From an uncultured Oscillospiraceae bacterium (GTDB lineage: Bacteria > Bacillota > Clostridia > Christensenellales > CAG-138): a stretch of DNA of 64,000 nucleotides. The position numbers were made by a program, and so were the translations under genes. The notes beneath the pieces were generated by a model, which was not told the DNA's origin, searched no databases, and saw only the letters and a list, made by a program, of their open reading frames with translations. This document shows positions 4,652-51,538 of the stretch, one piece after another. Numbering within the stretch: position 1 is the first letter of the stretch; the number at the start of each line of letters is the position of its first letter. The stretch covers positions 1,558-65,557 of the forward strand of contig CAYWTY010000002.1 of the NCBI GenBank assembly GCA_964461335.1, read 5' to 3'.

Positions 4652-5776
4652 TTAACTTTCACAGCCGAGCTTTGTTAAGAGCGCGAAAAGCTGCTCTTTG
4701 CTGCCCTCTACACCTGAAAGCGCAGCGTCACAAAGTGCATTAAGCTCCTCTTTAAAGTCAAAATAAAGGTCTGGCTCTGGGCTGCAGGGGGAGCTATATG
4801 CTTCAAAGAAAAGCTGGAGATAGCTGTCTTGGTACTTGGGCATTTCATCAAAGTCAGCTGCAGGGAGCGCACCTAGTGCTGTAAGCTTAAGCTGCTGCTT
4901 TTTTGTAAGAAGAAGCTCAATAAACCCTTTGCCATGTTCTAAAAACCCGCCTTTTGAACGTGCCTCAACTCCAATGTAGAGCACCTGTTCTGTAAAGCCG
5001 CCAAGCGGCAAGGCATCAAATGTAAAGCCGCCTGCAGCCATCTTCCGGTTAAGGTCCCCAAAGGCGCGGCCGTCCCCAATCATAAACGGCACCTGCCCTG
5101 CCTTAAAGTCACCCTCTAATGCAAGCGAACCTGTTAAGCCGAGCATTGCAGCATAAAGTTTCGGGCTGCAAAGCGCGCCATAGCGGCCTGTTGCACGCGA
5201 AGCCATTGCATCTTTAAGTGCATTGTAAAGCGCATCGCGCCTATTTGCTGCGTTGTTTGTTTCAGGCCAAGTCAGCCCAAGCTCCTGTATTAAAACTGTA
5301 TTGCCGAGCAGGAAATATCCGCTGTACATATAGGGCACAGCATACACAGCCCCATTATTAGAAAGTGCAGTTATGTTCCCCCGAAACTTTGGCAGCTCTA
5401 GCTCAAGAAGGCTAAACTGCTCTGCATTGAACGCACCCATAGGGAAGCTCCATATATGCGGCTTTTCTCCTGAAGCTATGCGCTCTATTGCCTGAGCGGG
5501 CGAAAGGCCGGTTACCTCTATATACACGCCCGGGTTTGCTCTCTCGTAAGAAGAGGCTGCGTTTTCAAGGTAGGATGTCAGGCTGCCCTTCTCGCTTTTG
5601 AACTCAGCAATATGCCAAAGGGTTAAGACCCCGCTCCAAGTATTTTGCTTGCCGCTAAGCCATTCCCTGTAAAAATTGCGGCCAAGCGCCTCATCAAGGT
5701 GCTTTGGCGCAACAATAAGGAAGGCAATAAGCATTGCCGAAACTATGCACCTTAGGCTGAATACAAGCTTTTTCAT
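4652..5776 (-). CDS. hypothetical membrane-anchored extracytoplasmic protein (solute-binding-protein-like)
   Basis: N-terminal signal/anchor MKKLVFSLRCIVSAMLIAFLIV. No diagnostic motif recognised. Start taken at the ATG at 5776. Confidence 0.3.
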   Translation of the reverse strand: MKKLVFSLRCIVSAMLIAFLIVAPKHLDEALGRNFYREWLSGKQNTWSGVLTLWHIAEFKSEKGSLTSYLENAASSYERANPGVYIEVTGLSPAQAIERIASGEKPHIWSFPMGAFNAEQFSLLELELPKFRGNITALSNNGAVYAVPYMYSGYFLLGNTVLIQELGLTWPETNNAANRRDALYNALKDAMASRATGRYGALCSPKLYAAMLGLTGSLALEGDFKAGQVPFMIGDGRAFGDLNRKMAAGGFTFDALPLGGFTEQVLYIGVEARSKGGFLEHGKGFIELLLTKKQQLKLTALGALPAADFDEMPKYQDSYLQLFFEAYSSPCSPEPDLYFDFKEELNALCDAALSGVEGSKEQLFALLTKLGCES

Positions 5777-5926
5777 AGCGCACCTAAAAATCATATCTCT
5801 ATCAGCATATGAGTGAGCGCTAACGTACAGAAGATGCTAATTAAATTTGAAGCAGCTGAATATTTTAACTACGTTAAGGGCATACTTCATATGCGGGAGT
5901 CCGTCTTTTTATAAACTTATGACCAT

Positions 5927-6892: not shown

Positions 6893-7626
6893 ATGACGCT
6901 AGCCCATTACCGCATGAAGAAGTTTTAGTTCTTTTAGAAAAAGCGCATAAAGGTGCTCAAGATGCAATGGATATGCTTGTGCGCCACAATACTGCGCTTG
7001 TAAAATCCATTGTTAAAAAATATCTTGGCAGAGGCGTAGAATTTGACGACCTTTACCAAATCGGCTGCCTCGGGCTTGTAAAAGCAATACAAAACTATGA
7101 CGCAGAGTTTTCTGTGCGCTTTTCAACATATGCAGTACCTATGATTGCAGGGGAGATTAAGCGCTTCCTGCGCGATGATGGGATGATTAAGGTAAGCCGC
7201 TCTGTTAAAGAGCTTGCAGTGCGCGCAGTAGCAGCACAGGAGCGCCTAAGGCGCACATTAGGCAGCGACCCGGGTATTTTGGAGCTTGCAAAAGAAGTTG
7301 ACGCAGAGCCTGAAGAAATTGCTGTTGCGCTTGAGGCAATGCGCCCGCATCTGTCTATTTATGAACATGTGTATGACGATGGTTCTGAGGCAACGCTTCT
7401 TGACCGCATGGAGCATACAGGCGGAGAGGATAGTAGCGTGGTAGATAGGATACTTTTAAAAGAGCTTCTTTGCAAGCTCGAAGCGCGAGAACGCCAGCTT
7501 ATTGTGCTGCGCTATTTTCAGGATAAAACGCAGTCTGAAATTGCGAAGCTCTTAGGCGTTTCCCAGGTGCAGGTGTCGCGCCTTGAAAGCAGGATTCTTA
7601 ACAAGCTGCGCGAAGCTGCTCGTTAA
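6889..7626 (+). CDS. sigF: RNA polymerase sporulation sigma factor F
   Basis: Sigma-70 region 2 (DLYQIGCLGLVKAIQNYD) and region 4 HTH (TQSEIAKLLGVSQVQVSRLE). Translationally coupled to spoIIAB. Confidence 0.9.
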   Translation: MNDASPLPHEEVLVLLEKAHKGAQDAMDMLVRHNTALVKSIVKKYLGRGVEFDDLYQIGCLGLVKAIQNYDAEFSVRFSTYAVPMIAGEIKRFLRDDGMIKVSRSVKELAVRAVAAQERLRRTLGSDPGILELAKEVDAEPEEIAVALEAMRPHLSIYEHVYDDGSEATLLDRMEHTGGEDSSVVDRILLKELLCKLEARERQLIVLRYFQDKTQSEIAKLLGVSQVQVSRLESRILNKLREAAR

Positions 7627-8516
7627 TCCTGTTCTTTTATTCTGCGCACGCGTATAAAAACATCTACTCCGTCAGATACATCGGTTTGCTCAAGGCTTAC
7701 TTGCATACCTGCATCGCTAAGCTGTTTTACTGCAACTGAAATAGAGTTTAAAAAGAGCCTGTAATCTCTTAAATACCTAAGGATTTTGGGGCGGGGCGCT
7801 GCACCGTCCTGTTTTTCGTCATATAGGCGGTTAAGCGTCTTTTCTACAAGCTTTTCCGTATCTTTAACAGAAAGCGAACGGTTCTTTACGCGCTCAACTA
7901 CCTGAAGCTGCGTAGCCTCATCCTTAAGCTTTAAAAGCGCGCGCGCATGGCGCTCTGTCATTCGCGCGTTTTGCATTGCATCCTTAACTTTTTGCGGAAG
8001 CCTTAAAACGCGCAGCTTGTTTGCAACAGCGGATTGGCTTTTTCCAAGGCGGGTTGCAAGCTCCTCCTGCGTAAGGTTGTAGTTTGAAATAAGGGTTTCG
8101 TAACACTCCGCCTCTTCAAGGTAGTGCAGGTTTTCACGCTGCAGGTTTTCAATAAGCGCAACAAGCGTACTCTCTTGTTCAACCATTACTGCTTCAACAA
8201 GGCAGGGCACTTCGCTCATCCCAAGGCGCTTGCAAGCGCGAAGCCTGCGCTCTCCTGCAACAAGCTCATACCCTTCGCCTACGCGCCTTACTACAAGCGG
8301 CTGAATAAGGCCGACTTGGCGGATGGATTCTGCAAGCTCGTCAAGCCCTTCTTCATCGAAGTTTTTTCTTGGCTGGTTGGGGTTTGGGCGGATTTCATCA
8401 AGCTGGAGCCGCATAAGCTTGCGGCTGCTTTCGCCCGGAAACTCCATACCTATATTGCGCTGCTTGCTGCTTTTAGCAGGCTCGGGCTTGTCCTTTAAAA
8501 AATCAAATACTGCCAT
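7623..8516 (-). CDS. noc: ParB-family nucleoid occlusion protein (Noc-like)
   Basis: ParB box IRPNPNQPRKNFDEEGLDELAESIRQVGLIQPLVVR and GERRLRA. Position downstream of mnmG-rsmG. Start at the ATG at 8516. Confidence 0.8.
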   Translation of the reverse strand: MAVFDFLKDKPEPAKSSKQRNIGMEFPGESSRKLMRLQLDEIRPNPNQPRKNFDEEGLDELAESIRQVGLIQPLVVRRVGEGYELVAGERRLRACKRLGMSEVPCLVEAVMVEQESTLVALIENLQRENLHYLEEAECYETLISNYNLTQEELATRLGKSQSAVANKLRVLRLPQKVKDAMQNARMTERHARALLKLKDEATQLQVVERVKNRSLSVKDTEKLVEKTLNRLYDEKQDGAAPRPKILRYLRDYRLFLNSISVAVKQLSDAGMQVSLEQTDVSDGVDVFIRVRRIKEQD

Positions 8517-23725: not shown

Positions 23726-23802
23726 GGGGTTATAGCTCAGCTGGTCAGAGCGCTACGTTGACATCGTAGAGGCCGTTGGTTCGATCCCAACTAATCCCAC
23801 CA
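23726..23802 (+). tRNA. tRNA-Val (anticodon GAC)
   Basis: Cloverleaf read by hand: acceptor ggggtta/taatccc, anticodon arm ctacg-ttGACat-cgtag, T-loop ggttcgatcc, encoded CCA. Confidence 0.9.
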
Positions 23803-23989: not shown

Positions 23990-24063
23990 TGCGGAATTGT
24001 GTAATGGTAGCACCTACGACTCTGACTCGTATTGTCTAGGTTCAAATCCTAGTTCCGCAGCCA
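23990..24063 (+). tRNA. tRNA-Gln (anticodon CTG)
   Basis: U1-A72 acceptor tgcggaa/ttccgca, discriminator G, anticodon arm tacga-ctCTGac-tcgta, T-loop ggttcaaatcc, encoded CCA. Confidence 0.9.
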
Positions 24064-42600: not shown

Positions 42601-42943
42601 AATTATTGCCTTGCTCTATTTCAATTCGAAGCGCAGTTGGGGAGTTTAGCGCCCTATAACCACCTATTTGCAGCTCAAGCACATAAAAGCTGCCTTTAAC
42701 ACATTTGCCTGTTTTGTTGGGAGCGAGCGCTTCAAGGCATAAAAGCACATGCCCCGTTTTATCCATATAAATAACATCAATTGGCTCTGCCATAAAATGA
42801 GTGTGAATTTGGCTGCAAGGGTAAAGCAGAAGGCCGTCGATTTTGCGTTTGCACATAAGCCCGAAAAGGCGCAGAAAGAAGGTGTGCGCAACGCGCACTT
42901 TAAGGCTAAGCCCGTTTTCAGCATAAAGCGTGGCATACTTCAT
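42587..42943 (-). CDS. DUF192 domain protein
   Basis: LKVRVAHTFFLRLFGLM...IDVIYMDKTGHVL pattern of DUF192. One-nucleotide overlap between the tadC stop codon and this gene's start codon (TAATG). Confidence 0.6.
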   Translation of the reverse strand: MKYATLYAENGLSLKVRVAHTFFLRLFGLMCKRKIDGLLLYPCSQIHTHFMAEPIDVIYMDKTGHVLLCLEALAPNKTGKCVKGSFYVLELQIGGYRALNSPTALRIEIEQGNNYGTQ

Positions 42944-43866
42944 TATTGCTCACCAAAGACTTTTATTATGTTAAACACAGTAGGCCCCATAAGTATAATA
43001 AAAAGCACAGGGAAGATGCACAGCACCATTGGCAGGAGCATTTTTACAGAGGCCTTCATGCCCTTTTCCTGGGCTGCCTGCTTCCGAATAAGCCGCATAT
43101 GCGATGCCTGAGTCTTAAGCACGCTTTTTATTGGAGTTCCCATTTGTTCGGATTGGATAATTGCAGCAACAAGCGTCTTAAGCTCAGCAACGCTGTTATT
43201 TTCGCCAAGGTCATAGAGCGCCTCACGCCTGGGCTTGCCCATTTGGATTTCCATTGATGTTATTGTAAGCTCCTCCTTAAGTGCGCCTGTGAACTTATCG
43301 AGCGCGCGCTTTAATGCTAAGTCAAAGCTAAGCCCTGCATCAATGCTTACAGAGAGAATATCCATCATATCAGGAAGCTGCATTCTTATTGAACTCTGCC
43401 TTACTCTGCTTTTTAAAATTAAAAAGTAGGCAGGGAAGAGGAGCGAGATGAAAAGCCCGCATGCAATAGTAAGCAGCATTTCTTTTGTTTCAAGCTCCAT
43501 ATAAAGCGCAAACAATGTGCAAAGTAGCATTAAGCCTATTGTTATTGCAAGGCGGAGCGCGGAATATGCCTCAACACTTATGTAAAAGCCTGCTAAGCGG
43601 AGCTTTCGCTCAAGCTTGCTGTTTGCTTGGCTCTTTCTTAAAGCGCGCGATGCTGCACGCTCAATCTTTTGCTTAAACCTTGCAACAAGCGGCTTTATAA
43701 AGCGCTTTGAAAAATCCTCCTCAAGCTCATCAGAAAAGAGCTTATCCCCTTCCTGTATGCGCTTAATGCGAATTTGTTTTGCTTTATAGCGTGTGCGCGG
43801 GCGGTCGAAAAGCAATAGGATTATAATAAACGCAAAGCCTGATGAGCTCAATATAATAAAAGCCAT
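42943..43866 (-). CDS. tadC: Tad pilus inner-membrane platform protein TadC (T2SS-F family)
   Basis: T2SSF domain with 3-4 TMs. Start moved to the ATG at 43866 (RBS aaggaggg). Confidence 0.75.
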   Translation of the reverse strand: MAFIILSSSGFAFIIILLLFDRPRTRYKAKQIRIKRIQEGDKLFSDELEEDFSKRFIKPLVARFKQKIERAASRALRKSQANSKLERKLRLAGFYISVEAYSALRLAITIGLMLLCTLFALYMELETKEMLLTIACGLFISLLFPAYFLILKSRVRQSSIRMQLPDMMDILSVSIDAGLSFDLALKRALDKFTGALKEELTITSMEIQMGKPRREALYDLGENNSVAELKTLVAAIIQSEQMGTPIKSVLKTQASHMRLIRKQAAQEKGMKASVKMLLPMVLCIFPVLFIILMGPTVFNIIKVFGEQ

Positions 43867-43882
43867 ATGCCCTCCTTCTCCC

Positions 43883-44809
43883 TTAATACTTAATTGAAAC
43901 GATTTTGCGGATGATTGCGTAACCGATAAATTCAAGCGCTCCTGCTAAAACAAGCAGCATACGCCCATTGTGTGTTGTAAAGAACACCTGCATATAGTCG
44001 GGGTTCATAAGCATTAAAACAAGGCCTATAACAACAGGCATAAACCCTATTACCATGCCTGAAATTCTGCCTGTTGATGTTATTGTGTGAATTTCAGCCT
44101 TAACTTTAAGGCGGTCTGTAACTGTCTGCGCAATGCTCTCAAGCACAGCTGAGAGGTTCCCGCCAACCTGCTGCGCAATTAAAATTGCTGTTACCATGAG
44201 TTTTACATCAGCGCTTGCAACACGGTGAGTAAGGTTTGTAAGCGCACGCTCAGCAGTGCTGCCAAGCTGCATTTCACGAAGCACACGCGCAAACTCGCGG
44301 CTTATAGGTTCGCTCATATGCTCTGAAACATGCTGCATCCCCTGCTGGAATGTAAGCCCGCTTTTAAGGCAGTTGCTTATGCTCGTAATTGCATCCGCAA
44401 GCTGCTTTTCAAACGCTAAGAGGCGCTTCCTGCGGCTGTGCCTCACATAGAGCGGCGGCAGGCAAAGCCCTATTAGCGTAAGCGTTGGGGGTATGAGCAT
44501 ATGCGCTTCAAGCAGGAAGCTTATTGCAGGCGGAACAAGCGCAAGCACAACCCAAAGTATTAAGAACTCCTCAGCGCGCATAGGCACGCCTGCGCTTGCA
44601 AGCTGCTCAATGAGCACTGCTGAGATTTTTATTGACGGTTTGCGCTGCCTTAAAAGTTCCTTTTTTGTAAGCTCACGCAAACGCTCGCCGCCAAGCGTTT
44701 TAAGGCGAGTTTGCGCTTTTAGCCTGTCGCGAAGGAGCGTTGCGCCAATAAGCGCAGCTGTTAGAAAAACCAGCGCAACAATGCTTATGCTAAGCAGCAG
44801 CTTTTCCAT
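43883..44809 (-). CDS. tadB: Tad pilus inner-membrane platform protein TadB (T2SS-F family)
   Basis: T2SSF domain. Follows the CpaF ATPase gene. Confidence 0.75.
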   Translation of the reverse strand: MEKLLLSISIVALVFLTAALIGATLLRDRLKAQTRLKTLGGERLRELTKKELLRQRKPSIKISAVLIEQLASAGVPMRAEEFLILWVVLALVPPAISFLLEAHMLIPPTLTLIGLCLPPLYVRHSRRKRLLAFEKQLADAITSISNCLKSGLTFQQGMQHVSEHMSEPISREFARVLREMQLGSTAERALTNLTHRVASADVKLMVTAILIAQQVGGNLSAVLESIAQTVTDRLKVKAEIHTITSTGRISGMVIGFMPVVIGLVLMLMNPDYMQVFFTTHNGRMLLVLAGALEFIGYAIIRKIVSIKY

Positions 44810-44824
44810 TGCCCCTCCTTAATA

Positions 44825-46165
44825 TTATTTAAACCAGTCTTCCTGTACAGGTACACCGTTTGTGCGAATCTTTTCCGCACAGCGCGGGAACACGCCTGTT
44901 GTGCGAAAGCGCCCGTAGAAGCGCCCCTCTCCGTCAAACGCACCATCTGTTTCAAAAACAAAAATATCCTGCATTGTGACTGTATCGCCCTCCATGCCTG
45001 TTATTTCTGCAATGCTTGTTACCCTGCGCGAGCCGTCGCGAAGCCTGCTCTGATGTACAATTACATCAACAGCACTTGCAATTTGCCCGCGGATAGCAAG
45101 CGCAGGCAGCTCTACTCCTGCCATAAGCACCATTGTTTCTACACGCGCAATCATATCGCGCGGGGAGTTTGCGTGGCAGGTAGAAAGTGAGCCGTCATGG
45201 CCTGTGTTCATTGCCTGGAGCATATCAAGCGCTTCGCCTCCGCGCACTTCACCTACAATTATTCTATCAGGCCGCATACGAAGTGCGTTTCTAACAAGCT
45301 CACGAATTGTTATTTCGCCCCTGCCTTCAAGGTTTGCAGGCCTGCTCTCAAGGGTTATAACATGCTGCTGGTGCAGTTGTAGCTCTGCTGCATCCTCAAT
45401 TGTGACTATTCTTTCATCCTGCGAAACAAAGCCGGAAAGCACGTTTAAAAGTGTTGTTTTGCCGCTTCCTGTTCCGCCAGAAACCATTATATTAAGCCGC
45501 CCTTTAACGCACGCATCAAGGAAGCTTGCCATGCGTTGGGAGAGTGAGCCGAAGTCAACAAGGTCATGCACTTTAAAGGGCGTTTTCGCAAACTTTCGAA
45601 TTGTTACTGTTGGCCCTATAAGAGAAAGCGGGGGTATAATTATATTAACGCGGGAGCCATCCTTAAGTCGCGCATCAACCATTGGGCTTGATTCGTCAAC
45701 ATGCCGCCCTATGCCTGCGACTATTTTTTCAATTATCTGCATAACAGCTTCATCATCGCGAAAAGTTACATTCGAAAGGTGTAGCTTGCCATTGCGCTCA
45801 ACAAATACTTGGCTTGGCCCATTAACCATAATTTCGCTTATACTTGGGTCGTTTAAAAGCTCCTCAATAGGGCCTAAGCCCATTACTTCGTTGTAGAGCA
45901 TTGTAGCAATGCGCGCCCGCTCTAAGCGAGTTATTGCATTTGCATATTCCATTAGCACATCGTCAATTACGCTTTGCACCTGTGTGCAGCTTGGCTCGCC
46001 ACCCTGCGTGCGCAGGCGGTCAATTACGCGGTAGCGTACACGCTCGCGTATAGCTTCGTACTGCTCATGAGATGCATCGGATATTACAAGCGCAGCCTGC
46101 GCTTGTACATCTGTTTTAGGTGCGCTTACTTCATCGGCTTTGTTAAGCCTTACTCTTAGGCTCAT
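44825..46165 (-). CDS. tadA: Tad pilus secretion ATPase CpaF/TadA
   Basis: Walker A VSGGTGSGKTTLLN, Asp box IVTIEDAAEL, Walker B RPDRIIVGEVRG, His box. Confidence 0.9.
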   Translation of the reverse strand: MSLRVRLNKADEVSAPKTDVQAQAALVISDASHEQYEAIRERVRYRVIDRLRTQGGEPSCTQVQSVIDDVLMEYANAITRLERARIATMLYNEVMGLGPIEELLNDPSISEIMVNGPSQVFVERNGKLHLSNVTFRDDEAVMQIIEKIVAGIGRHVDESSPMVDARLKDGSRVNIIIPPLSLIGPTVTIRKFAKTPFKVHDLVDFGSLSQRMASFLDACVKGRLNIMVSGGTGSGKTTLLNVLSGFVSQDERIVTIEDAAELQLHQQHVITLESRPANLEGRGEITIRELVRNALRMRPDRIIVGEVRGGEALDMLQAMNTGHDGSLSTCHANSPRDMIARVETMVLMAGVELPALAIRGQIASAVDVIVHQSRLRDGSRRVTSIAEITGMEGDTVTMQDIFVFETDGAFDGEGRFYGRFRTTGVFPRCAEKIRTNGVPVQEDWFK

Positions 46166-47280
46166 TTTGCAAACACCTCCGCTGCCATATCTTTAAGCTG
46201 CCTGCCTAAAAGGCTGCGCGGCTCCTCAAGCACAATTGGTCTTCCTATGCACTGAGAGCGGTCTGCAAGTTTATCATCGCGTGTAAGTATAAACTCCGGT
46301 TTTGTGCCTAAAACACGCTCAACATCTTTTAGCGAAAGGAATGCCTTGCAGTCTTTATTGTAAATATAGCCGACCTTTTCGCGAAGCTGCAGCGATGTAA
46401 GCACAGTTGTTGCAAGGTGCGCTGCGCGTATGCTTGCAAGGTCGGGCTGCAAGACTATGTAAATCTGGTTGCTGTTTTCAAGCGCTGTAATTGTCGTATC
46501 TGTAAAGTTTGCTGGTAAATCCATAAAAATGCAGTCAAAAAACGGGCGCATTACAGAAAGTACGCTTTCAATATGGCGGCCTTCCACATATTCGCCGCTA
46601 TCCGGCGTATTAGGCCCAGCAAGCACAGTAAGCCCTGAGTAATGCTGCACAGTAAAGCCGCGCAGCACATCCATAGTTAGGTTTGCGCGCTCCTGCGCAA
46701 GCTCTGCAATTGTGTCCTTTGCTTGAATATCCAAATAAAGCGCTGTACACGCATAATCAAGGTTTAAGTCTAATAGCGCAACCTTTTTACCCTGTTTTGC
46801 AAGCGCAGCAGCCATATTTACTGCAAGCGTTGTTTTGCCTGTGCCGCCCTTGCCCGAGTATATGCTTATTACGCGCGTTTTCCCTGGCGAGGCTTCCCTG
46901 CCTCCTGGCCGCGCCTGCTCAAGCGCACCTGCGCGGCGCACTGTATCAAGCACAGATGCACCACCCTCTTCAAACGAAGCAAGCAGCCGAATGCCGGAGT
47001 TTAGCGCTTCTTTTGCAAGCTCAAGGTTCAGCTCCTCGCTAAGGAGCACAATTGCGCAGCCCTCTACGCTTTGATAAATCCTCTGCGCTATATCGTATGT
47101 AGCAGGGGACTCATAGCAAATAAGCGCAACATCCGGCAAAAGCCCCTGCGCTTTTTGCACAGCTAAAGGTGATACATCGCTGTAACCCACAATCGCTATA
47201 TCGCTTGCATCGAGGATTCCCTTTATTTTGTAGCGCAATGTCTTATCGCTGCTTAATACGAGCACCTTAAGCTTTTCCAT
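46162..47280 (-). CDS. TadZ/CpaE-like protein (receiver-like N-domain plus ParA/MinD ATPase)
   Basis: Deviant Walker A SGKGGTGKTTLA. The N-terminal CheY-like fold begins KVLVLSSD. Start at the ATG at 47280 (RBS aaggaga). Confidence 0.7.
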   Translation of the reverse strand: MEKLKVLVLSSDKTLRYKIKGILDASDIAIVGYSDVSPLAVQKAQGLLPDVALICYESPATYDIAQRIYQSVEGCAIVLLSEELNLELAKEALNSGIRLLASFEEGGASVLDTVRRAGALEQARPGGREASPGKTRVISIYSGKGGTGKTTLAVNMAAALAKQGKKVALLDLNLDYACTALYLDIQAKDTIAELAQERANLTMDVLRGFTVQHYSGLTVLAGPNTPDSGEYVEGRHIESVLSVMRPFFDCIFMDLPANFTDTTITALENSNQIYIVLQPDLASIRAAHLATTVLTSLQLREKVGYIYNKDCKAFLSLKDVERVLGTKPEFILTRDDKLADRSQCIGRPIVLEEPRSLLGRQLKDMAAEVFAK

Positions 47281-47290
47281 GCGTTTCTCC

Positions 47291-48031
47291 TTATCGGCCA
47301 AGTACAGGCAGAGGTATGAACAGTTCCGAAGGGCCTGCGCTTGTATCGCTTGGGTTTCTAAGCGTGAAATAAATATGCGCTCCGCTTGTTATAGCGTAGT
47401 GGAGCGCAAGTGCGTCATCAGCATTAAGGCTAAGCGTAATTAAGCCATAGCCTGTTACCTGCTGGCCTGAAATGTTCGCTGAAAGCGGGCCAAGTTCAAG
47501 CACACGCACGCGTTCTATTAAAAGGCCTGAAGCATAGGTTTTTGTTATTTCCTTTGTGCCGTCAGGCGCTTCTTCTTCATCGTAAATTGTATACGCGCAC
47601 ATAATATCCACAAAGTCGCTCTTAGAGATATAGCCGCCAACACCTGCAGCTTCATCAATTGAGAGCGTAATAGCGCGCATTCCCTCCTCAACAACATACG
47701 AAAGCTGCCCGCCTTGGCTGCCGCTTGTAATGTCGCTAAGCTGCTCATGCGAAAGCTGCTGGCCAAGGGGCAGGTAGTAGCGGCTTATTTTGCCAACTGC
47801 ATCATTAAGCGATGTAATTGCATTTGGCGCAACCCACTCAAGCGCAGTTTCTTTAAGTGCAACCATATCAGAAGTAATAACCATGTTTTCGCCAATTGGC
47901 ACAGCTGCTACAACAACCTGACCCATGGGTGTAATTACAGTTGCCTTCTTTTCAAGCGCTGAAGCGAAAAAATAGGCTGCTACGCCTGTTAAAACTGCGA
48001 AAATAGCTGCGAGTATATAAATCTTCTTCAT
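47291..48031 (-). CDS. cpaB: Flp pilus assembly protein CpaB (SAF domain)
   Basis: N-terminal TM plus a SAF/RcpC-like body. Position in the locus. Confidence 0.7.
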   Translation of the reverse strand: MKKIYILAAIFAVLTGVAAYFFASALEKKATVITPMGQVVVAAVPIGENMVITSDMVALKETALEWVAPNAITSLNDAVGKISRYYLPLGQQLSHEQLSDITSGSQGGQLSYVVEEGMRAITLSIDEAAGVGGYISKSDFVDIMCAYTIYDEEEAPDGTKEITKTYASGLLIERVRVLELGPLSANISGQQVTGYGLITLSLNADDALALHYAITSGAHIYFTLRNPSDTSAGPSELFIPLPVLGR

Positions 48032-48118
48032 TAAGCCCGCCTTTCATGTGGATGTTTTCGGCGTATAATTAAGGTAATATGTAAAGCATGTTTGCGTATC
48101 TTCAAAAAATAAAAACAC

Positions 48119-48514
48119 TCAGGCAATTTTCATTTGCGTAAAGGCGCTTAGGCTGTACATGCCGCCTTGTGCATTAGTAAAAAGCGATGCAATTGGCGTT
48201 AGAGTTGGCACACTTTTATTTACTGTAACTTTTATGTCGTCACCTATAAGGCTTACAAGCACATCCGTTGCTCCAGGGCCTTTGATCATATTTTGAACAA
48301 GCACTTCAACATCTATTGTAAGCGTTGCTGACTCGCTATTTACAATTGCGTAGCGCGCACCTTCGCGGCTCCCGTTTTCAATGCTCATTTGGTTGTAAAA
48401 ATACCAGCCAAACTCCATAATGCCAAAAAGCAGCAGCAAAAGCACAGGCAGCGAAACCGCAAGCTCAACAAGCGCTTGGCCGCTTTCAAAATGTGCATTC
48501 TGCCGCTTTTTCAT
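48119..48514 (-). CDS. TadE-like pseudopilin
   Basis: ESGQALVELAVSLPVLLLLLFGIMEFGWYF is a TadE/G N-terminal motif. Start at the ATG at 48514 (RBS ggagg). Confidence 0.7.
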   Translation of the reverse strand: MKKRQNAHFESGQALVELAVSLPVLLLLLFGIMEFGWYFYNQMSIENGSREGARYAIVNSESATLTIDVEVLVQNMIKGPGATDVLVSLIGDDIKVTVNKSVPTLTPIASLFTNAQGGMYSLSAFTQMKIA

Positions 48515-48528
48515 TTTGCCTCCGTTTT

Positions 48529-48559
48529 GCATATCCGCCCGCTTAGCGGGCGGATATGC
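48529..48559 (-). other. 14-bp perfect stem-loop between flp and tadE
   Basis: gcatatccgcccgc-tta-gcgggcggatatgc. No U-tract follows on the coding (minus) strand. Confidence 0.5.
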
Positions 48560-48612
48560 ATGTGTAGGAAGGGTTGTATTAACTTTGTTGTGAATTGCTC
48601 TGTTCGCACATA

Positions 48613-48786
48613 TTATGGGGCAGGCACTACAAGCTTGTCACTGGCTGCTGTGAACAGGGCGGAAATCTTCGGCCCTAAAAGAACCAAGGCCCCAATTGCA
48701 GCTATTGCGACAAGTGCGAGTATAAGCCCGTATTCGACCATGCCTTGGCCGTTTTCATCCTTTAGGATGTCCATGAACTTTTTCAT
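48613..48786 (-). CDS. flp: Flp/Fap family pilin (57 aa, missing from ORF track)
   Basis: MKKFMDILKDENGQGMVEYGLILALVAIAAIGALVLLGPKISALFTAASDKLVVPAP. It has the Flp processing motif G-xxxx-EY followed by a hydrophobic helix. RBS aaaggagaaa. Confidence 0.85.
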   Translation of the reverse strand: MKKFMDILKDENGQGMVEYGLILALVAIAAIGALVLLGPKISALFTAASDKLVVPAP

Positions 48787-48798
48787 ATTATTTCTCCT

Positions 48799-49455
48799 TT
48801 AAAATTTAAAGTTTAGCATTGTTTCAAGCAGCGGGAAGACCATAGCTGAAGCTGCACCTAACGAAATGTACGGCCCCATTGCTGCAAGCGACTTCCGTGT
48901 GCCCTTTTTGTGGATGTAAAGGTAAACTAAATGTCCGACCATTGCAACCCCCATAACAAGCATGATTTGCAAAAGCCCGATTAACCCGAAGCAGAAGCCT
49001 AAAATTATAGCGTATTTAACATCCCCCCAGCCAATGTTTAGGCCAAATTTTGAGGGGAGGATAAACACAGCGCCTGCAGCTAATGCGCCAAGCAGGCTTG
49101 AAGTAAGCTCCCACCCTGCGCTTGCAGTCTTATATAGCGCAAATACTAAGAGCATTGCAAGAAGCAGCTCATTTGGGATGCGCCTAATAAGAAGGTCAAC
49201 TGCGCTTAAGGCGAGCATTAGCTCAAAAAGCAATAGTGCAAAAAGCACGCTAAGCGCACCTTGAGGCAGAAGAAGCAGAGAGATTAACATAAAGGCAGCG
49301 GAATTTAGCGCGCACCAGCCGTATACAGCGTATTTCGCGCTTATAAGCGGGCTTGTAGAGGGCGCCTCAACGCGCTTTGCAATGAGCGTTCGCGTTAAGT
49401 TTAGCATGGGTACGCCTAAGAGGGCGCCTGCAAGTGCTGCTATGGGTATCCACAT
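48799..49455 (-). CDS. A24-family prepilin peptidase (TadV/CpaA-like)
   Basis: Polytopic, with the GWGDVKY aspartyl motif. Start at the ATG at 49455 (MWIPIAALAG, RBS ggagga). Confidence 0.8.
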   Translation of the reverse strand: MWIPIAALAGALLGVPMLNLTRTLIAKRVEAPSTSPLISAKYAVYGWCALNSAAFMLISLLLLPQGALSVLFALLLFELMLALSAVDLLIRRIPNELLLAMLLVFALYKTASAGWELTSSLLGALAAGAVFILPSKFGLNIGWGDVKYAIILGFCFGLIGLLQIMLVMGVAMVGHLVYLYIHKKGTRKSLAAMGPYISLGAASAMVFPLLETMLNFKF

Positions 49456-49595
49456 AAATCCTCCGAGCGTAGTACTTTGCCCCAAAAGGGGCATGTCGTG
49501 ACGCTTCACCGAATGCCGGCTAATTCGTCTACGCTGCATCTTTTGATGCGGCAGATACTTTGCTCTGCCATATTCGTAAACAAAAGCAGCTCAAT

Positions 49596-49678
49596 CCGGC
49601 GGCTGGCTGCCGTGGGCTTATCGCCTTTAGGCCCTTTAGCTTTGCGTGAGCAGCCTTTCGGCTGCCTTGCCCTTTTCA
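49596..49678 (-). promoter_or_regulatory. c-di-GMP-I (GEMM-I)-like riboswitch aptamer, copy A
   Basis: Minus strand: AAGGGCAAGGCAGCCGAAAGGCUGCUCACGCAAAGCUAAAGGGCCUAAAGGCGAUAAGCCCACGGCAGCCAGCCGCC. It carries the GGCAA / GAAA-capped hairpin / ACGCAAAGC / GGCCUAAA / AGCCAG signature. Confidence 0.65.
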
Positions 49679-49882
49679 ATTAAGAGATACTTTTGTAAGC
49701 GCTTCATAGTTTTCTATGCGGTGCTTACCGGGAACTTAGGTATTTGCTAAAAATTGGCTGTACGCAAACTGCTCTTTTGCAGCGAAGCATATTTTAAAAC
49801 CACCTCCAACAATGTATTGCCTGCGCACAAGATTGCGCCTTACTATTAGTTTCGTGCAAATTGCGCGAAAGTTAATACAGCC

Positions 49883-51295
49883 TTAGCGAATAAGCTTAAC
49901 TCGCTCAACAAGCTCATTCCCCATAAAGTCCGGTTCCCCCTCAAGCGGGAAGATTGAGACTTTCCCCGGGATTGTAACCTGTTTGCCGATTATATGCCCA
50001 TAATACGAGCCGCCGTAGCCTTGCCATGTAATCTTTCCATTAGGCGCAAACAGCACGCCCCTGCCTGTTTGGTATTTTATATCGATGTTGCCGTTTGCCG
50101 AAACAACACAAATCATATCTCCTGCATTTAGGTTTGCCTCATAGCTGTTGAATGCAATATTCCCTTTGGCAAATAAATTCCCCTTGCCATGAGCAGCAGC
50201 GCCTGAGGTAAGCGAACCTCCGGCAAATATATTGCACCCGTCTAAGGTGCAGGTATAGCCTGAAATCGCTATATTTCCGCCTGCGTAAATGCTCCCCTTG
50301 CTTATAAAGGCGTTCCCAAGGCTAATATCATTTAGCGCGTAAATTATGCCGTCATTGTCTATATAGCTGCCTACAAATGTAATGCTCCCGCCTGAAAACA
50401 CATTGCCCTTGCCCCTGAAGCTGTTCCCAAACGAAATGTCGCCTGTTGCGTAAATTGTGCCGTTTAGCTCACAAACAGGTGCTGTGCCCTGTATTTTAAG
50501 GTTCCCGTCAACATAGAGGTTGCCGTTTACAGTAGTTTCGTTTGTGAAGGTGCAGCTGCCTGTTATATAGGTATTGCCTGTAAAAACCTGCTTAACGCCT
50601 GGCACAATATCTGCGGGGTTAAGCACTGTATATGTCGCAAGGTCGCCTGGAAGCTTGGGCTGGCTTGGCTTAAGATTCTGCTCGATTTTGTTTATATCCG
50701 GCATTTCCTCCTTTGGAGCGCTGCCAGAAACGCCGCCTAAAACCTTATAGCTGTTGTGAATTGTGGCTGTATGTACTGCGCTTGCTCTGCCTCTAATTGT
50801 GCTGTAACCTGCAGGGTGCCAAGAAGACGAGAAGTTAAGCGAGCCGTTTGCGTGAACATTGCCCCAAATATTTAGCGGGTCGCTTGATTTTAGCGTAAAG
50901 CCAGCATCATCTGTAAAAAGCAGGTAGTCAAACGAAAAGCCGTTGCTTGAAAATGTTTTTTCTGCGCTTGCAAGTGCATTAACTGAATTTTCCTTCCTGC
51001 CGAATACGCTTGAAAACCCGGCGCCTACTGCCTTTGTGCCTGAAGCTGTAATAACCATGTTGTTGTTTTCAAAGTCAAACTCCACCCCGTCTGCACTAAA
51101 GCCGTTTGCATTTAGGTATTTTTCCGCTTCAAGGCGCGCAAGCCCTGTATCAGGCAGGAGCGTAGCCCCTGCAAGCACGCTTGCATCAAGCGCTGTCTGC
51201 AGGCGCGTGTTTTCAAGGTAGAGCATGCTCATATCAATAGCGAGCGCGCCAAACCCCAAAAGAACTGCCATTGCTACTGCTATTACAACTATCAT
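49883..51295 (-). CDS. TadG-like pilus-associated protein with C-terminal beta-helix-type repeats
   Basis: N-terminus IAVAMAVLLGFGALAIDMSMLYLENTRLQTALDASVLAGA is a Tad/TadG N-terminal motif. The C-terminal half has three ~33-aa G-N-I/G-D-I repeats (IYATGDISFGNSF.., IYALNDISLGNAF.., IFAGGSLTSGAAA..). Confidence 0.65.
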   Translation of the reverse strand: MIVVIAVAMAVLLGFGALAIDMSMLYLENTRLQTALDASVLAGATLLPDTGLARLEAEKYLNANGFSADGVEFDFENNNMVITASGTKAVGAGFSSVFGRKENSVNALASAEKTFSSNGFSFDYLLFTDDAGFTLKSSDPLNIWGNVHANGSLNFSSSWHPAGYSTIRGRASAVHTATIHNSYKVLGGVSGSAPKEEMPDINKIEQNLKPSQPKLPGDLATYTVLNPADIVPGVKQVFTGNTYITGSCTFTNETTVNGNLYVDGNLKIQGTAPVCELNGTIYATGDISFGNSFRGKGNVFSGGSITFVGSYIDNDGIIYALNDISLGNAFISKGSIYAGGNIAISGYTCTLDGCNIFAGGSLTSGAAAHGKGNLFAKGNIAFNSYEANLNAGDMICVVSANGNIDIKYQTGRGVLFAPNGKITWQGYGGSYYGHIIGKQVTIPGKVSIFPLEGEPDFMGNELVERVKLIR

Positions 51296-51327: not shown

Positions 51328-51357
51328 AACAAAAAATCGCAGCTTCCCAGCTGCGAT
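51328..51357 (-). terminator. leader terminator (expression platform of riboswitch copy B)
   Basis: Minus strand: AUCGCAGCU-GGGA-AGCUGCGAU followed by U6, 35 nt upstream of the ATG at 51295. Confidence 0.7.
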
Positions 51358-51389
51358 AATAACGCATACGGCTTTTGCCGCTATTGCGG

Positions 51390-51470
51390 TACTGCAACTG
51401 GCTGCCTTTGGCTTTTGCCTTTAGGCCCTGTAGTTTTGCGCCACCGGCTTTCACCGGCTTTGCCCTTAAA
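51390..51470 (-). promoter_or_regulatory. c-di-GMP-I (GEMM-I)-like riboswitch aptamer, copy B
   Basis: Minus strand: AAGGGCAAAGCCGGUGAAAGCCGGUGGCGCAAAACUACAGGGCCUAAAGGCAAAAGCCAAAGGCAGCCAGUUGCAG. Confidence 0.7.
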
Positions 51471-51509
51471 ACCCTAAAATATTGCCATACATCATATGGA
51501 GTATTAAAT

Positions 51510-51538
51510 ATTATATATCAGTTGCATTTGTTTGTCAA
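51510..51538 (-). promoter_or_regulatory. consensus sigma-A promoter of the Tad locus leader
   Basis: Minus strand: TTGACA (51538-51533), 17 nt, TATAAT (51515-51510). Confidence 0.65.

Follow-up and report, generated by a model that had tools for sequence, protein, structure and literature searches.

The subject of this analysis was a 64,000-nucleotide (nt) stretch of DNA from an uncultured Oscillospiraceae bacterium (GenBank assembly GCA_964461335.1, contig CAYWTY010000002.1, positions 1,558 to 65,557 of the forward strand), called the window below. Within its Tad pilus locus, the 428-nt spacer between a TadG-like gene and a prepilin peptidase gene contains an aptamer of the cyclic diguanosine monophosphate class I (c-di-GMP-I), which we call copy A. 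The peptidase gene, of the cpaA type, starts 140 nt downstream of copy A in the same orientation, and the flp-tad genes follow. Judged from its sequence, copy A is very probably a working c-di-GMP-I riboswitch that controls the prepilin peptidase-flp-tad operon. Its expression platform appears remodelled relative to those of related loci, and our leading reading, held tentatively, is an ON logic through a hairpin proximal to the aptamer. Statements on ligand binding, transcript ends and transcription starts derive from the sequence throughout.

The whole 64-kb window was scanned with cmscan of Rfam 15 at gathering thresholds (score 35 for the c-di-GMP-I family, RF01051). Four matches were obtained, namely two tRNAs and two RF01051 aptamers, copies A and B, which both lie on the minus strand and each span the full model. 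Copy A (49595-49681) covered model positions 1-87 of 87 with 61.8 bits (E = 1.2e-9 for the window, 1.1e-11 when the search was confined to 49380-49960), and RF01051 was the top-scoring family of its clan at the site. This score is below those of its relatives (64-84 bits). An earlier sequence-only reading of the same letters had proposed a c-di-GMP-I-like aptamer at 49579-49700, quoted its minus-strand sequence and suggested a covariance-model search. The quoted sequence is present as written, and the search, with a match over the full model well above the gathering score, bears the proposal out.

The c-di-GMP-I class is defined by two adjacent hairpins, the first with a GNRA tetraloop cap, and an AAA junction (PMC1950547). 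Copy A shows two adjacent hairpins, a GNRA-capped first one (GGCAGCC-GAAA-GGCUGCU) and then ..CGC-AAA-GCU... To this, 50 distinct aptamers from the window and related loci added comparative evidence. Standard pairs occupied 99.7% of the cells in the true register of their alignment, compared to 13-41% in slid-alignment controls. For copy A itself, 18 of the 19 model pairs were standard, the exception being the basal A.C of the second hairpin; the cmscan alignment gave one further non-standard apical pair (G.A). Covarying pairs, which the sequence-only reading had wanted counted against orthologous loci, were frequent: nine of the 19 model pairs changed on both sides, and none of 500 shuffles reached as high. 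Such compensatory covariation argues for selection on RNA structure and not for a recent duplication. Copies A and B both carry G at the pocket position, model position 11, which we take to be the equivalent of G20 in Vc2. A change from G to A at the pocket position confers selectivity for cyclic AMP-GMP (c-AMP-GMP) instead of c-di-GMP (PMC9481103).

Copy B (51390-51474, minus strand) scored 70.7 bits. The two copies are 71% identical overall, and among the 19 model pairs three differ on both sides and two on one side. The GAAA-capped hairpin is GGCAGCC/GGCUGCU in copy A and GCCGGU/GCCGGU in copy B, and the apical hairpin differs in its loop alone (GGC-GAUAA-GCC vs GGC-AAAA-GCC). Thus, the earlier description of a first hairpin rebuilt from different but complementary sequence, and of a loop-only change in the apical one, agrees with the comparison. 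The same is true of the view that copy A is no recent duplicate of copy B. Copy A was 75-80% identical to the third-position aptamers of six related loci (L084, L002, L004, L096, L098, and L003); outside its own clade its nearest aptamers were mostly those of position 3 in other genomes, and copy B grouped with positions 1 and 2. The platforms are unlike as well, as had also been claimed. Copy B is followed by a strong, self-contained terminator (51357-51336, -14.4 kcal/mol, z = -6.5) with a terminator-type score of +33, a d'Aubenton-Carafa-type value which, like all such scores here, is comparative only. The 5' arm of this terminator is complementary to the aptamer 3' strand (CCAGUUGC/GCAGCUGG, -13.7 kcal/mol), which is an OFF design.

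Related loci were gathered by a genome scan, a metagenome pattern scan and contig look-ups, and Rfam was then run on them. The TadG-like protein and the peptidase had few homologues, all of them in metagenome-assembled genomes of uncultured Bacillota/Clostridia or in metagenome contigs. One metagenome pattern match (L086) was rejected as a chance match inside a coding region. The closer relatives carry three c-di-GMP-I aptamers per Tad locus. Position 1 is upstream of the TadG-like gene and corresponds to copy B, position 2 comes just after that gene, and position 3 follows 150-450 nt past position 2, directly ahead of the peptidase. Positions 2 and 3 therefore form a tandem pair before the peptidase, with no conserved open reading frame (ORF) between them. 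The three-riboswitch loci are L001-L004, L006, L008, L081-L084, and L096-L107, for example L001 at 5766-5853, 7506-7592, and 7990-8080, and their riboswitches carry OFF-type terminators. In the distant loci L015 and L016, two tandem aptamers precede the peptidase, and the TadG-like gene is found further downstream, past the flp genes.

The window and its close relatives (the window clade, eight distinct leader sequences) have positions 1 and 3 only. The middle riboswitch was lost in this clade, and a permissive Rfam search of 49380-49960, including the 428-nt spacer, detected no remnant of a second aptamer. Copy A and all position-3 RNAs have in common a 3' extension, UGAAG..GCUUUUGUUUAC, and downstream motifs, and on these shared features copy A is the ortholog of the position-3 riboswitch of the related Tad loci. 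Positions 1 and 2, like copy B, have a simpler OFF version in which the 5' arm of the terminator is complementary to the aptamer 3' strand.

The leader of the peptidase gene contains the following elements, all on the minus strand.

49705-49718, minus strand: small hairpin CAUAG-AAAA-CUAUG, 5' of strand P, in the eight window-clade leaders
49678-49696, minus strand: 5' closing strand P, in which ACAAAAGUA and CUUAAUU pair with the aptamer 3' tail as an extended closing helix
49595-49681, minus strand: c-di-GMP-I aptamer copy A, with GAAA-capped first hairpin, AAA linker and second hairpin, identified by Rfam RF01051 and covariation
49585-49611, minus strand: proximal hairpin GGCAGCCAGCC-GCC-GG.AUUG.AGCUGCU, candidate terminator stem
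49578-49585, minus strand: U-run UUUUGUUU, candidate U-tract abutting the proximal hairpin
49575-49601, minus strand: switching strand A, the aptamer 3' tail CGCCGGAUUGAGCUGCUUUUGUUUACG, which can pair with P, with the aptamer 3' half or with T
49536-49569, minus strand: two local hairpins of minimum-free-energy (MFE) folds (GGCAGAGC..GCUCUGCC type, and GCAUC-AAAA-GAUGC), enclosed by the A:T helix
49507-49533, minus strand: strand T, CGUAGACGAAUUAGCCGGCAUUCGGUG, complementary to A over about 24 bp
49490-49517, minus strand: hairpin X (GGCAUUCG..CGA-C-AUGCC), homologous to the distal terminator of the relatives
49478-49493, minus strand: hairpin Y (UGCCCC-UUUU-GGGGCA), overlapping the 3' arm of X, which it would sequester

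Two alternative pairings of strand A were recognized, and both use the segment UUUUGU. The P:A duplex was calculated with RNAduplex at -18.1 kcal/mol in the window and at -12 to -19 kcal/mol in all 11 orthologous leaders tested. In the position-3 relatives the P strand ACAAAAGU..CUUC pairs with the tail GAAG..GCUUUUGU. The ACAAAAG of P is near-invariant across the orthologous leaders, and the inner part of the helix is CUUAAUU/GAUUGAG in the window vs CUUC/GAAG in the relatives, so that both strands changed and are still complementary. The A:T duplex reached -28.3 kcal/mol in the window and -21 to -31 kcal/mol in all orthologs. In the relatives it consists of CCGAAUG/CAUUCGG plus UUUGUUUAC/GUAAAC, with the T strand 60-110 nt downstream of the tail, and its three distal pairs covary between subclades (ACG/CGU, ACC/GGU, GCG/CGC, and CCG/CGG). 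This pairing is the predicted antiterminator of the relatives. In 13 of the 15 leaders outside the window clade, T and a further strand, H, form a strong hairpin that is followed by a U-tract. By analogy, the position-3 design in these 13 relatives looks like an OFF switch of the Cd1 type. In the ancestral logic, ligand would hold A in the P:A helix, T:H would form, and transcription would stop.

Tested against this Cd1-type platform, the window leader showed an A strand able to pair with either P or T and lacked a T:H hairpin with a U-tract. Behind hairpin X stands CCUUUUGG in the window, and the other clade members have CCGUUUAGG or UCGUUUAGG there; none of these is a U-tract, and the U-rich stretch at this place is not conserved within the clade. 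The terminator score of the distal site was low, at -53 to -74 in the window clade vs about 0 to +16 in most relatives. Hairpin Y, a new element of the form (A)UGCCCC-loop-GGGGCA(U), had -12.2 kcal/mol (z = -2.6) in the window and -12 to -13 kcal/mol across the clade, where its stem was kept (one C to U change giving G.U) and its loop varied from UUUU to GUUUA.

The only terminator-like site in the window-clade leader was the proximal hairpin with its U-run. This hairpin has 11 bp with two bulges and -11.4 kcal/mol, and its 5' arm coincides with the second aptamer hairpin's 3' strand. The sequence-only reading had described here a weak helix, GGCAGC...GCUGCU, and a U-tract at 49579-49585. The helix exists and is longer and stronger than described; the U-tract is present as UUUUGUUU, one base off at 49585-49578. 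The arrangement has the geometry of the GEMM ON platform, with a hairpin built from the aptamer 3' strand and a U-run directly behind it. For a transcript ending at GCUGCU, the state expected with RNA polymerase positioned on the U-run, the MFE structure contained the proximal hairpin (-39.6 kcal/mol vs -34.4 kcal/mol with the aptamer enforced), a gap of about 5 kcal/mol that ligand binding could plausibly cover in this model. A co-transcriptional series of MFE folds was uninformative, in that the model preferred a spurious GGGC/GCCC pairing over the aptamer.

The proximal hairpin was invariant in the eight clade members. It was absent or negligible (0 to -2.2 kcal/mol) in the 14 other orthologous leaders, where the terminator score of the proximal site was -43 to -107 or no hairpin was found. 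Each substitution that sets the window clade apart from its nearest outgroups (L003, L004, L096, and L108) brings additional pairs to the proximal hairpin. Among these changes, U to C at 49601 disrupts the pair at the base of the second aptamer hairpin and accounts for the only unpaired cells in the 50-aptamer alignment; it would thereby weaken the ligand-free aptamer. The U-run itself is part of GCUUUUGUUUAC, an ancestral motif whose partner is either ACAAAAG upstream or GUAGAC/GUAAAC downstream. Read across the orthologs, it is not a new element but an ancestral, near-invariant pairing strand of all the leaders. A P:A helix that acts with the U-run as a ligand-dependent terminator was considered and is unlikely, as the stem beside the U-run has only 3 bp and then becomes A/U-rich.

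The ON logic, a speculation in the sequence-only reading, thus moved up to a tentative first choice, since the proximal hairpin is stronger than had been supposed, is specific to the lineage and coincides with the loss of the distal terminator. In the window lineage the distal terminator would be dead and the decision shifted to the aptamer tail. Without ligand, the tail would invade the second aptamer hairpin, form the 11-bp hairpin followed by UUUUGUUU, and stop transcription near 49578-49585. When c-di-GMP is present, both arms of the proximal hairpin would be held in the aptamer and the P:A helix, and polymerase would read through to the pilus genes. More speculatively, a read-through mRNA that loses its ligand could form the 24-bp A:T duplex, which might mark it for processing or decay and so reinforce the ON response. 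In favor of this logic are the fact that one lineage both lost the distal terminator and gained the proximal hairpin, the common direction of the derived substitutions, and the existence of a precedent.

Several results weigh against the ON logic. The proximal hairpin with its U-run has a borderline terminator score of -5, and the hairpin is G+C-rich, with 26 of 200 shuffles folding as well (z = -1.25); shuffling of the tail gave p = 0.03, a weak support. Its invariance within a shallow clade leaves it without covariation, and the same shallowness gives no covariation signal for other lineage-specific structures. Nearest-neighbour folding ignores the tertiary contacts of the aptamer and the energy landscape is rugged. 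OFF designs are found in the relatives, 13 of 15 of which have distal terminators, and in copy B. Strand T and hairpin X have no substitutions within the clade and would have no role under a pure ON logic. Finally, in the stretch from the TadG-like gene to copy A, two scans found no promoter site with at least 9 of 12 matches. The operon may therefore share a transcript with the TadG-like gene behind the OFF switch of copy B, and such an arrangement fits awkwardly with an ON switch in copy A.

The conservation of the leader bears on every reading. Across 226 nt (49712-49487), clade members differed by 3-4%, whereas the third codon positions in the neighbouring gene differed by 25-28% and the spacer upstream by 28-29%. 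The ligand-contact positions and both alternative pairings were conserved about 7-fold better than neutral sites. These values show that the entire leader is functional, including the parts for which a pure ON model has no role. The local-hairpin insert at 49536-49569 varied in sequence and length among the relatives and had a 3-nt loop indel within the clade. Just 5' of strand P, the CAUAG/CUAUG stem of the small hairpin was invariant in the eight window-clade leaders and its loop varied (AAAA, AUAA, UAAA, and AAAC); this hairpin may be a 5'-end structure or a protein site. An additional partner for its CUAUG is UAUGG at 49570-49566, whose first U may instead be at 49571.

The best-surviving alternative, which we regard as unlikely, is that the ancestral OFF logic was kept. 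c-di-GMP would then stabilise P:A and free T, T and H would form hairpin X, and expression would be lowered by a weak or factor-assisted (NusA/NusG-type) terminator at CCUUUUGG or by an output that the sequence does not reveal, such as access of Rho or RNase, the proximal hairpin being incidental and inefficient. This account explains why P, A, T and the A:T duplex of -28.3 kcal/mol are kept and why T and X are unchanged against 25-29% at neutral sites. It also agrees with the OFF designs of 13 of 15 orthologs and of copy B and with the weak statistics of the proximal hairpin, and two successive OFF switches would be coherent if co-transcription of the operon began at the single consensus promoter, which lies upstream of copy B. 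Its difficulty is the output. No usable U-tract follows X, be it CCUUUUGG, CCGUUUAGG or UCGUUUAGG (scores -53 to -74), and the sequence behind X falls in the least conserved part of the leader (49486-49456, 42-45% differences between clade members). The clade-conserved hairpin Y is more stable than X and takes its 3' arm. The predicted accessibility of the Shine-Dalgarno sequence GGAGGA hardly changed between folds that enforced the aptamer and P:A and folds that enforced A:T, and the 11-bp hairpin abutting the U-run would prematurely terminate the ligand-free ON state on which an OFF switch depends. Translational control was rejected on the same lack of difference between the two states, and no conserved anti-Shine-Dalgarno sequence was seen by eye.

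It is quite unlikely, in our estimate, that the aptamer binds c-di-GMP while its platform makes no termination decision and the pilus operon is regulated mainly through copy B. The conserved leader could then serve, for example, mRNA stability, processing of the long A:T duplex, or binding of a protein or a small RNA. In its favor are the loss of one of three riboswitches in the clade without a detectable remnant, the dead distal terminator, the borderline proximal one and a distal leader constrained without a recognisable output. However, the roughly 7-fold better conservation of the ligand-contact positions and alternative pairings is expected of a working switch and not of a relic, and the changes in the tail are compensated in strand P, which indicates continued selection on the closing helix.

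That the element is no riboswitch at all, and instead a chance match or a plus-strand coding region (ORF 49477-49683, 68 aa), is scarcely credible: the plus-strand frame is open across the leader and stays open in the clade members, but it does so only through their near-identity, its start is not conserved among them, the leaders of more distant relatives differ by many indels, the Rfam score is far over the gathering threshold, and covariation supports the RNA fold. The antisense ORF and an in-frame upstream ATG at 49539, the start given in the ORF list, were also rejected as causes of the conservation, as neither has a conserved start or ribosome-binding site and the nucleotide conservation extends to third positions. 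Both are probably artefacts of a conserved RNA leader.

The genes around copy A were assigned with Pfam, and all genes of the locus are on the minus strand.

52621-51623, minus strand: msrAB, gene context
51336-51538, minus strand: copy B region with promoter, aptamer and terminator ahead of the TadG-like gene, OFF design
51295-49883, minus strand: TadG-like gene, 470 aa, with a TadE/G-like N-terminus and a beta-solenoid-like body
49453-49464, minus strand: Shine-Dalgarno GGAGGA and ATG (49455) of the A24 prepilin peptidase (cpaA/tadV type, Pfam Peptidase_A24)
42943-49455, minus strand: regulated operon, with the same gene order in related loci

The operon comprises, in order, the prepilin peptidase, Flp pilin, TadE, RcpC/CpaB, a TadZ/CpaE-like ATPase, CpaF/TadA, TadB, and TadC. 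The true start of the peptidase is ATG 49455, with GGAGGA in front and an N-terminus, MWIPI, that is common to homologues; the upstream ATG at 49539 has no ribosome-binding site. Public gene calls differ in this start and give versions of 217, 228, and 148 aa. The 470-aa TadG-like gene lies between copies A and B, which are thus not in tandem in one leader. A perfect promoter, TTGACA-17-TATAAT (51538-51510, minus strand), was found upstream of copy B. Near-consensus promoters also precede every position-1 aptamer and the position-2 aptamers of one subclade, and the pilus genes of the window may be read from the copy B promoter. In one subclade, TTGACA-16-AAAAGT lies upstream of the third riboswitch and would make ACAAAAGT a -10 element and not an RNA strand. 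As a general explanation of this motif the idea was rejected, as the -35 element and spacing are not conserved elsewhere and L084 has AAAAGG.

Further observations were made on these loci. The body of the TadG-like protein, whose gene copy B controls, resembles FapA, bactofilin, and DUF7305 beta-solenoids, and the protein had 20 matches in 5.8 billion sequences, all from uncultured Bacillota. Two to four tandem flp pilin genes were seen in L105 (4202-5006), L103 (4194-4575), and L015/L016 (4736-5428); the window has one. On L094 (241-478), a contig of the window clade, msrAB and the copy B riboswitch are separated by an inserted T-box leader and PALP-domain gene. No GGDEF motif was found in a scan of the window, and matches to an EAL-like motif are probably due to chance. 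The two tRNA genes of the window (23726-23799 and 23990-24060, plus strand, Rfam) are unrelated to the riboswitches.

Several aptamers of the related loci, mostly the middle riboswitch, have A in the pocket (AGCAAA) instead of G (GGCAAA). They are L001 7506-7592, L002 7490-7574, L004 7250-7334, L096 2718-2802 and 3227-3313, L098 2793-2878, L101 2747-2832, L084 7185-7270, and L015 3854-3938. The occurrence of G-type and A-type aptamers in series in one leader suggests a two-messenger control of the pilus operon. As to the platforms, the distal terminator is also absent from L098 (3383-3500), where the tail pairs with CGGACAAG and UUUCUC follows; such a rearrangement, unlike that of the window, could also give an ON logic. 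In L096 the U-tract is degraded (UAAUUAUUU). Among these orthologs the expression platform seems to evolve fast.

The riboswitch class, its link to cpaA-type genes and the multi-copy arrangement are already known, and any Rfam-based annotation would flag both copies. Of modest added interest are the remodelled platform and a possible sign change. These results place a Tad/Flp pilus locus of an uncultured clostridial lineage under direct wiring to c-di-GMP at two points, so that production of an adhesion pilus would be tied to the main second messenger of bacterial lifestyle switching without a protein regulator. The window lineage appears to have lost one of the three riboswitches that its relatives carry and to have rebuilt the output module of another. 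The wider proposal is that an orthologous riboswitch inverted its logic within one family, from an OFF P-A-T-H switch to an ON switch by a handful of substitutions, with band-pass or opposite responses as the result; we consider this as a whole somewhat unlikely. The inversion would have used a terminator built from the aptamer 3' half and the inherited U-run, the old terminator having lost its U-tract. If the logic was flipped, this would be a clean natural case of a riboswitch sign change by few substitutions with the aptamer unchanged. In series with copy B, copy A could give band-pass or divergent control. With copy B as an OFF switch and no promoter between the copies, the pilus machinery would be made only at intermediate c-di-GMP; alternatively, the TadG-like protein and the pilus machinery would respond oppositely to the same messenger.

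The first description of GEMM, in 2007, already listed it ahead of cpaA (the gene family of the Tad prepilin peptidase; Table 2), linked it to pili and noted tandem copies (PMC1950547). In the literature searched, no dedicated study of c-di-GMP riboswitches with Tad/Flp genes was found. Copy A resembles c-di-GMP-I RNAs such as Vc2 of Vibrio cholerae in its match to the full model, its GAAA hairpin, AAA linker and conserved junction, and its position in a 5' leader, where members of the class typically control genes with motility, membrane or environmental functions. It is unlike typical members in the A.C mismatch at the base of the second hairpin and in an unusually long closing helix of about 20 bp in several segments, which reaches 40 nt upstream.

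The Cd1 riboswitch of the flgB operon of Clostridioides difficile is a transcriptional OFF switch with a P-A-T-H strand logic (PMC9262584). The orthologs of copy A are like Cd1 in that their aptamer is closed by P:A, with A:T as antiterminator and T:H as terminator. The window keeps P, A, T and a remnant of H, but it has lost the U-tract after T:H, and an OFF output is not visible. Also unlike Cd1, the window has about 60 nt between A and T, which include two inserted hairpins. In the GEMM ON design, the 5' part of the terminator overlaps the 3' part of the second hairpin, as in 78 of 322 GEMM RNAs (PMC1950547); the Geobacter pilM switch for c-GAMP is an example (PMC9262584). In the hairpin at 49611-49585, the 5' arm is likewise supplied by the 3' strand of the second hairpin, and the U-run comes directly after. 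This hairpin departs from that design in its two bulges, its borderline score and its restriction to one shallow clade, and in a U-run inherited from an OFF-type ancestor in which it was a pairing strand.

A survey of multi-copy c-di-GMP-I riboswitches reported 347 doublets and 12 triplets, among them a triplet in Bacillus thuringiensis, and a seven-riboswitch locus in Desulfobacca acetoxidans; in some loci the copies are separated by ORFs and include pocket variants that prefer c-AMP-GMP (PMC9481103). The present loci are similar in having several riboswitches of the same class, three per Tad locus in the relatives with two of them in tandem. Unlike a pseudo-cooperative tandem, the copies of the window are 1.7 kb apart, with a gene between them and with different platforms. 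A c-di-GMP riboswitch upstream of pilA1 (type IVa pili) in C. difficile was reportedly described by Bordeleau et al. (2015, cited in PMC6916266). It belongs to the c-di-GMP-II class and has an ON logic. Copy A shares with it the placement of a c-di-GMP riboswitch on pilus genes in Clostridia, and would share its logic if copy A is ON, but it belongs to the other aptamer class and serves a Tad/type IVc pilus.

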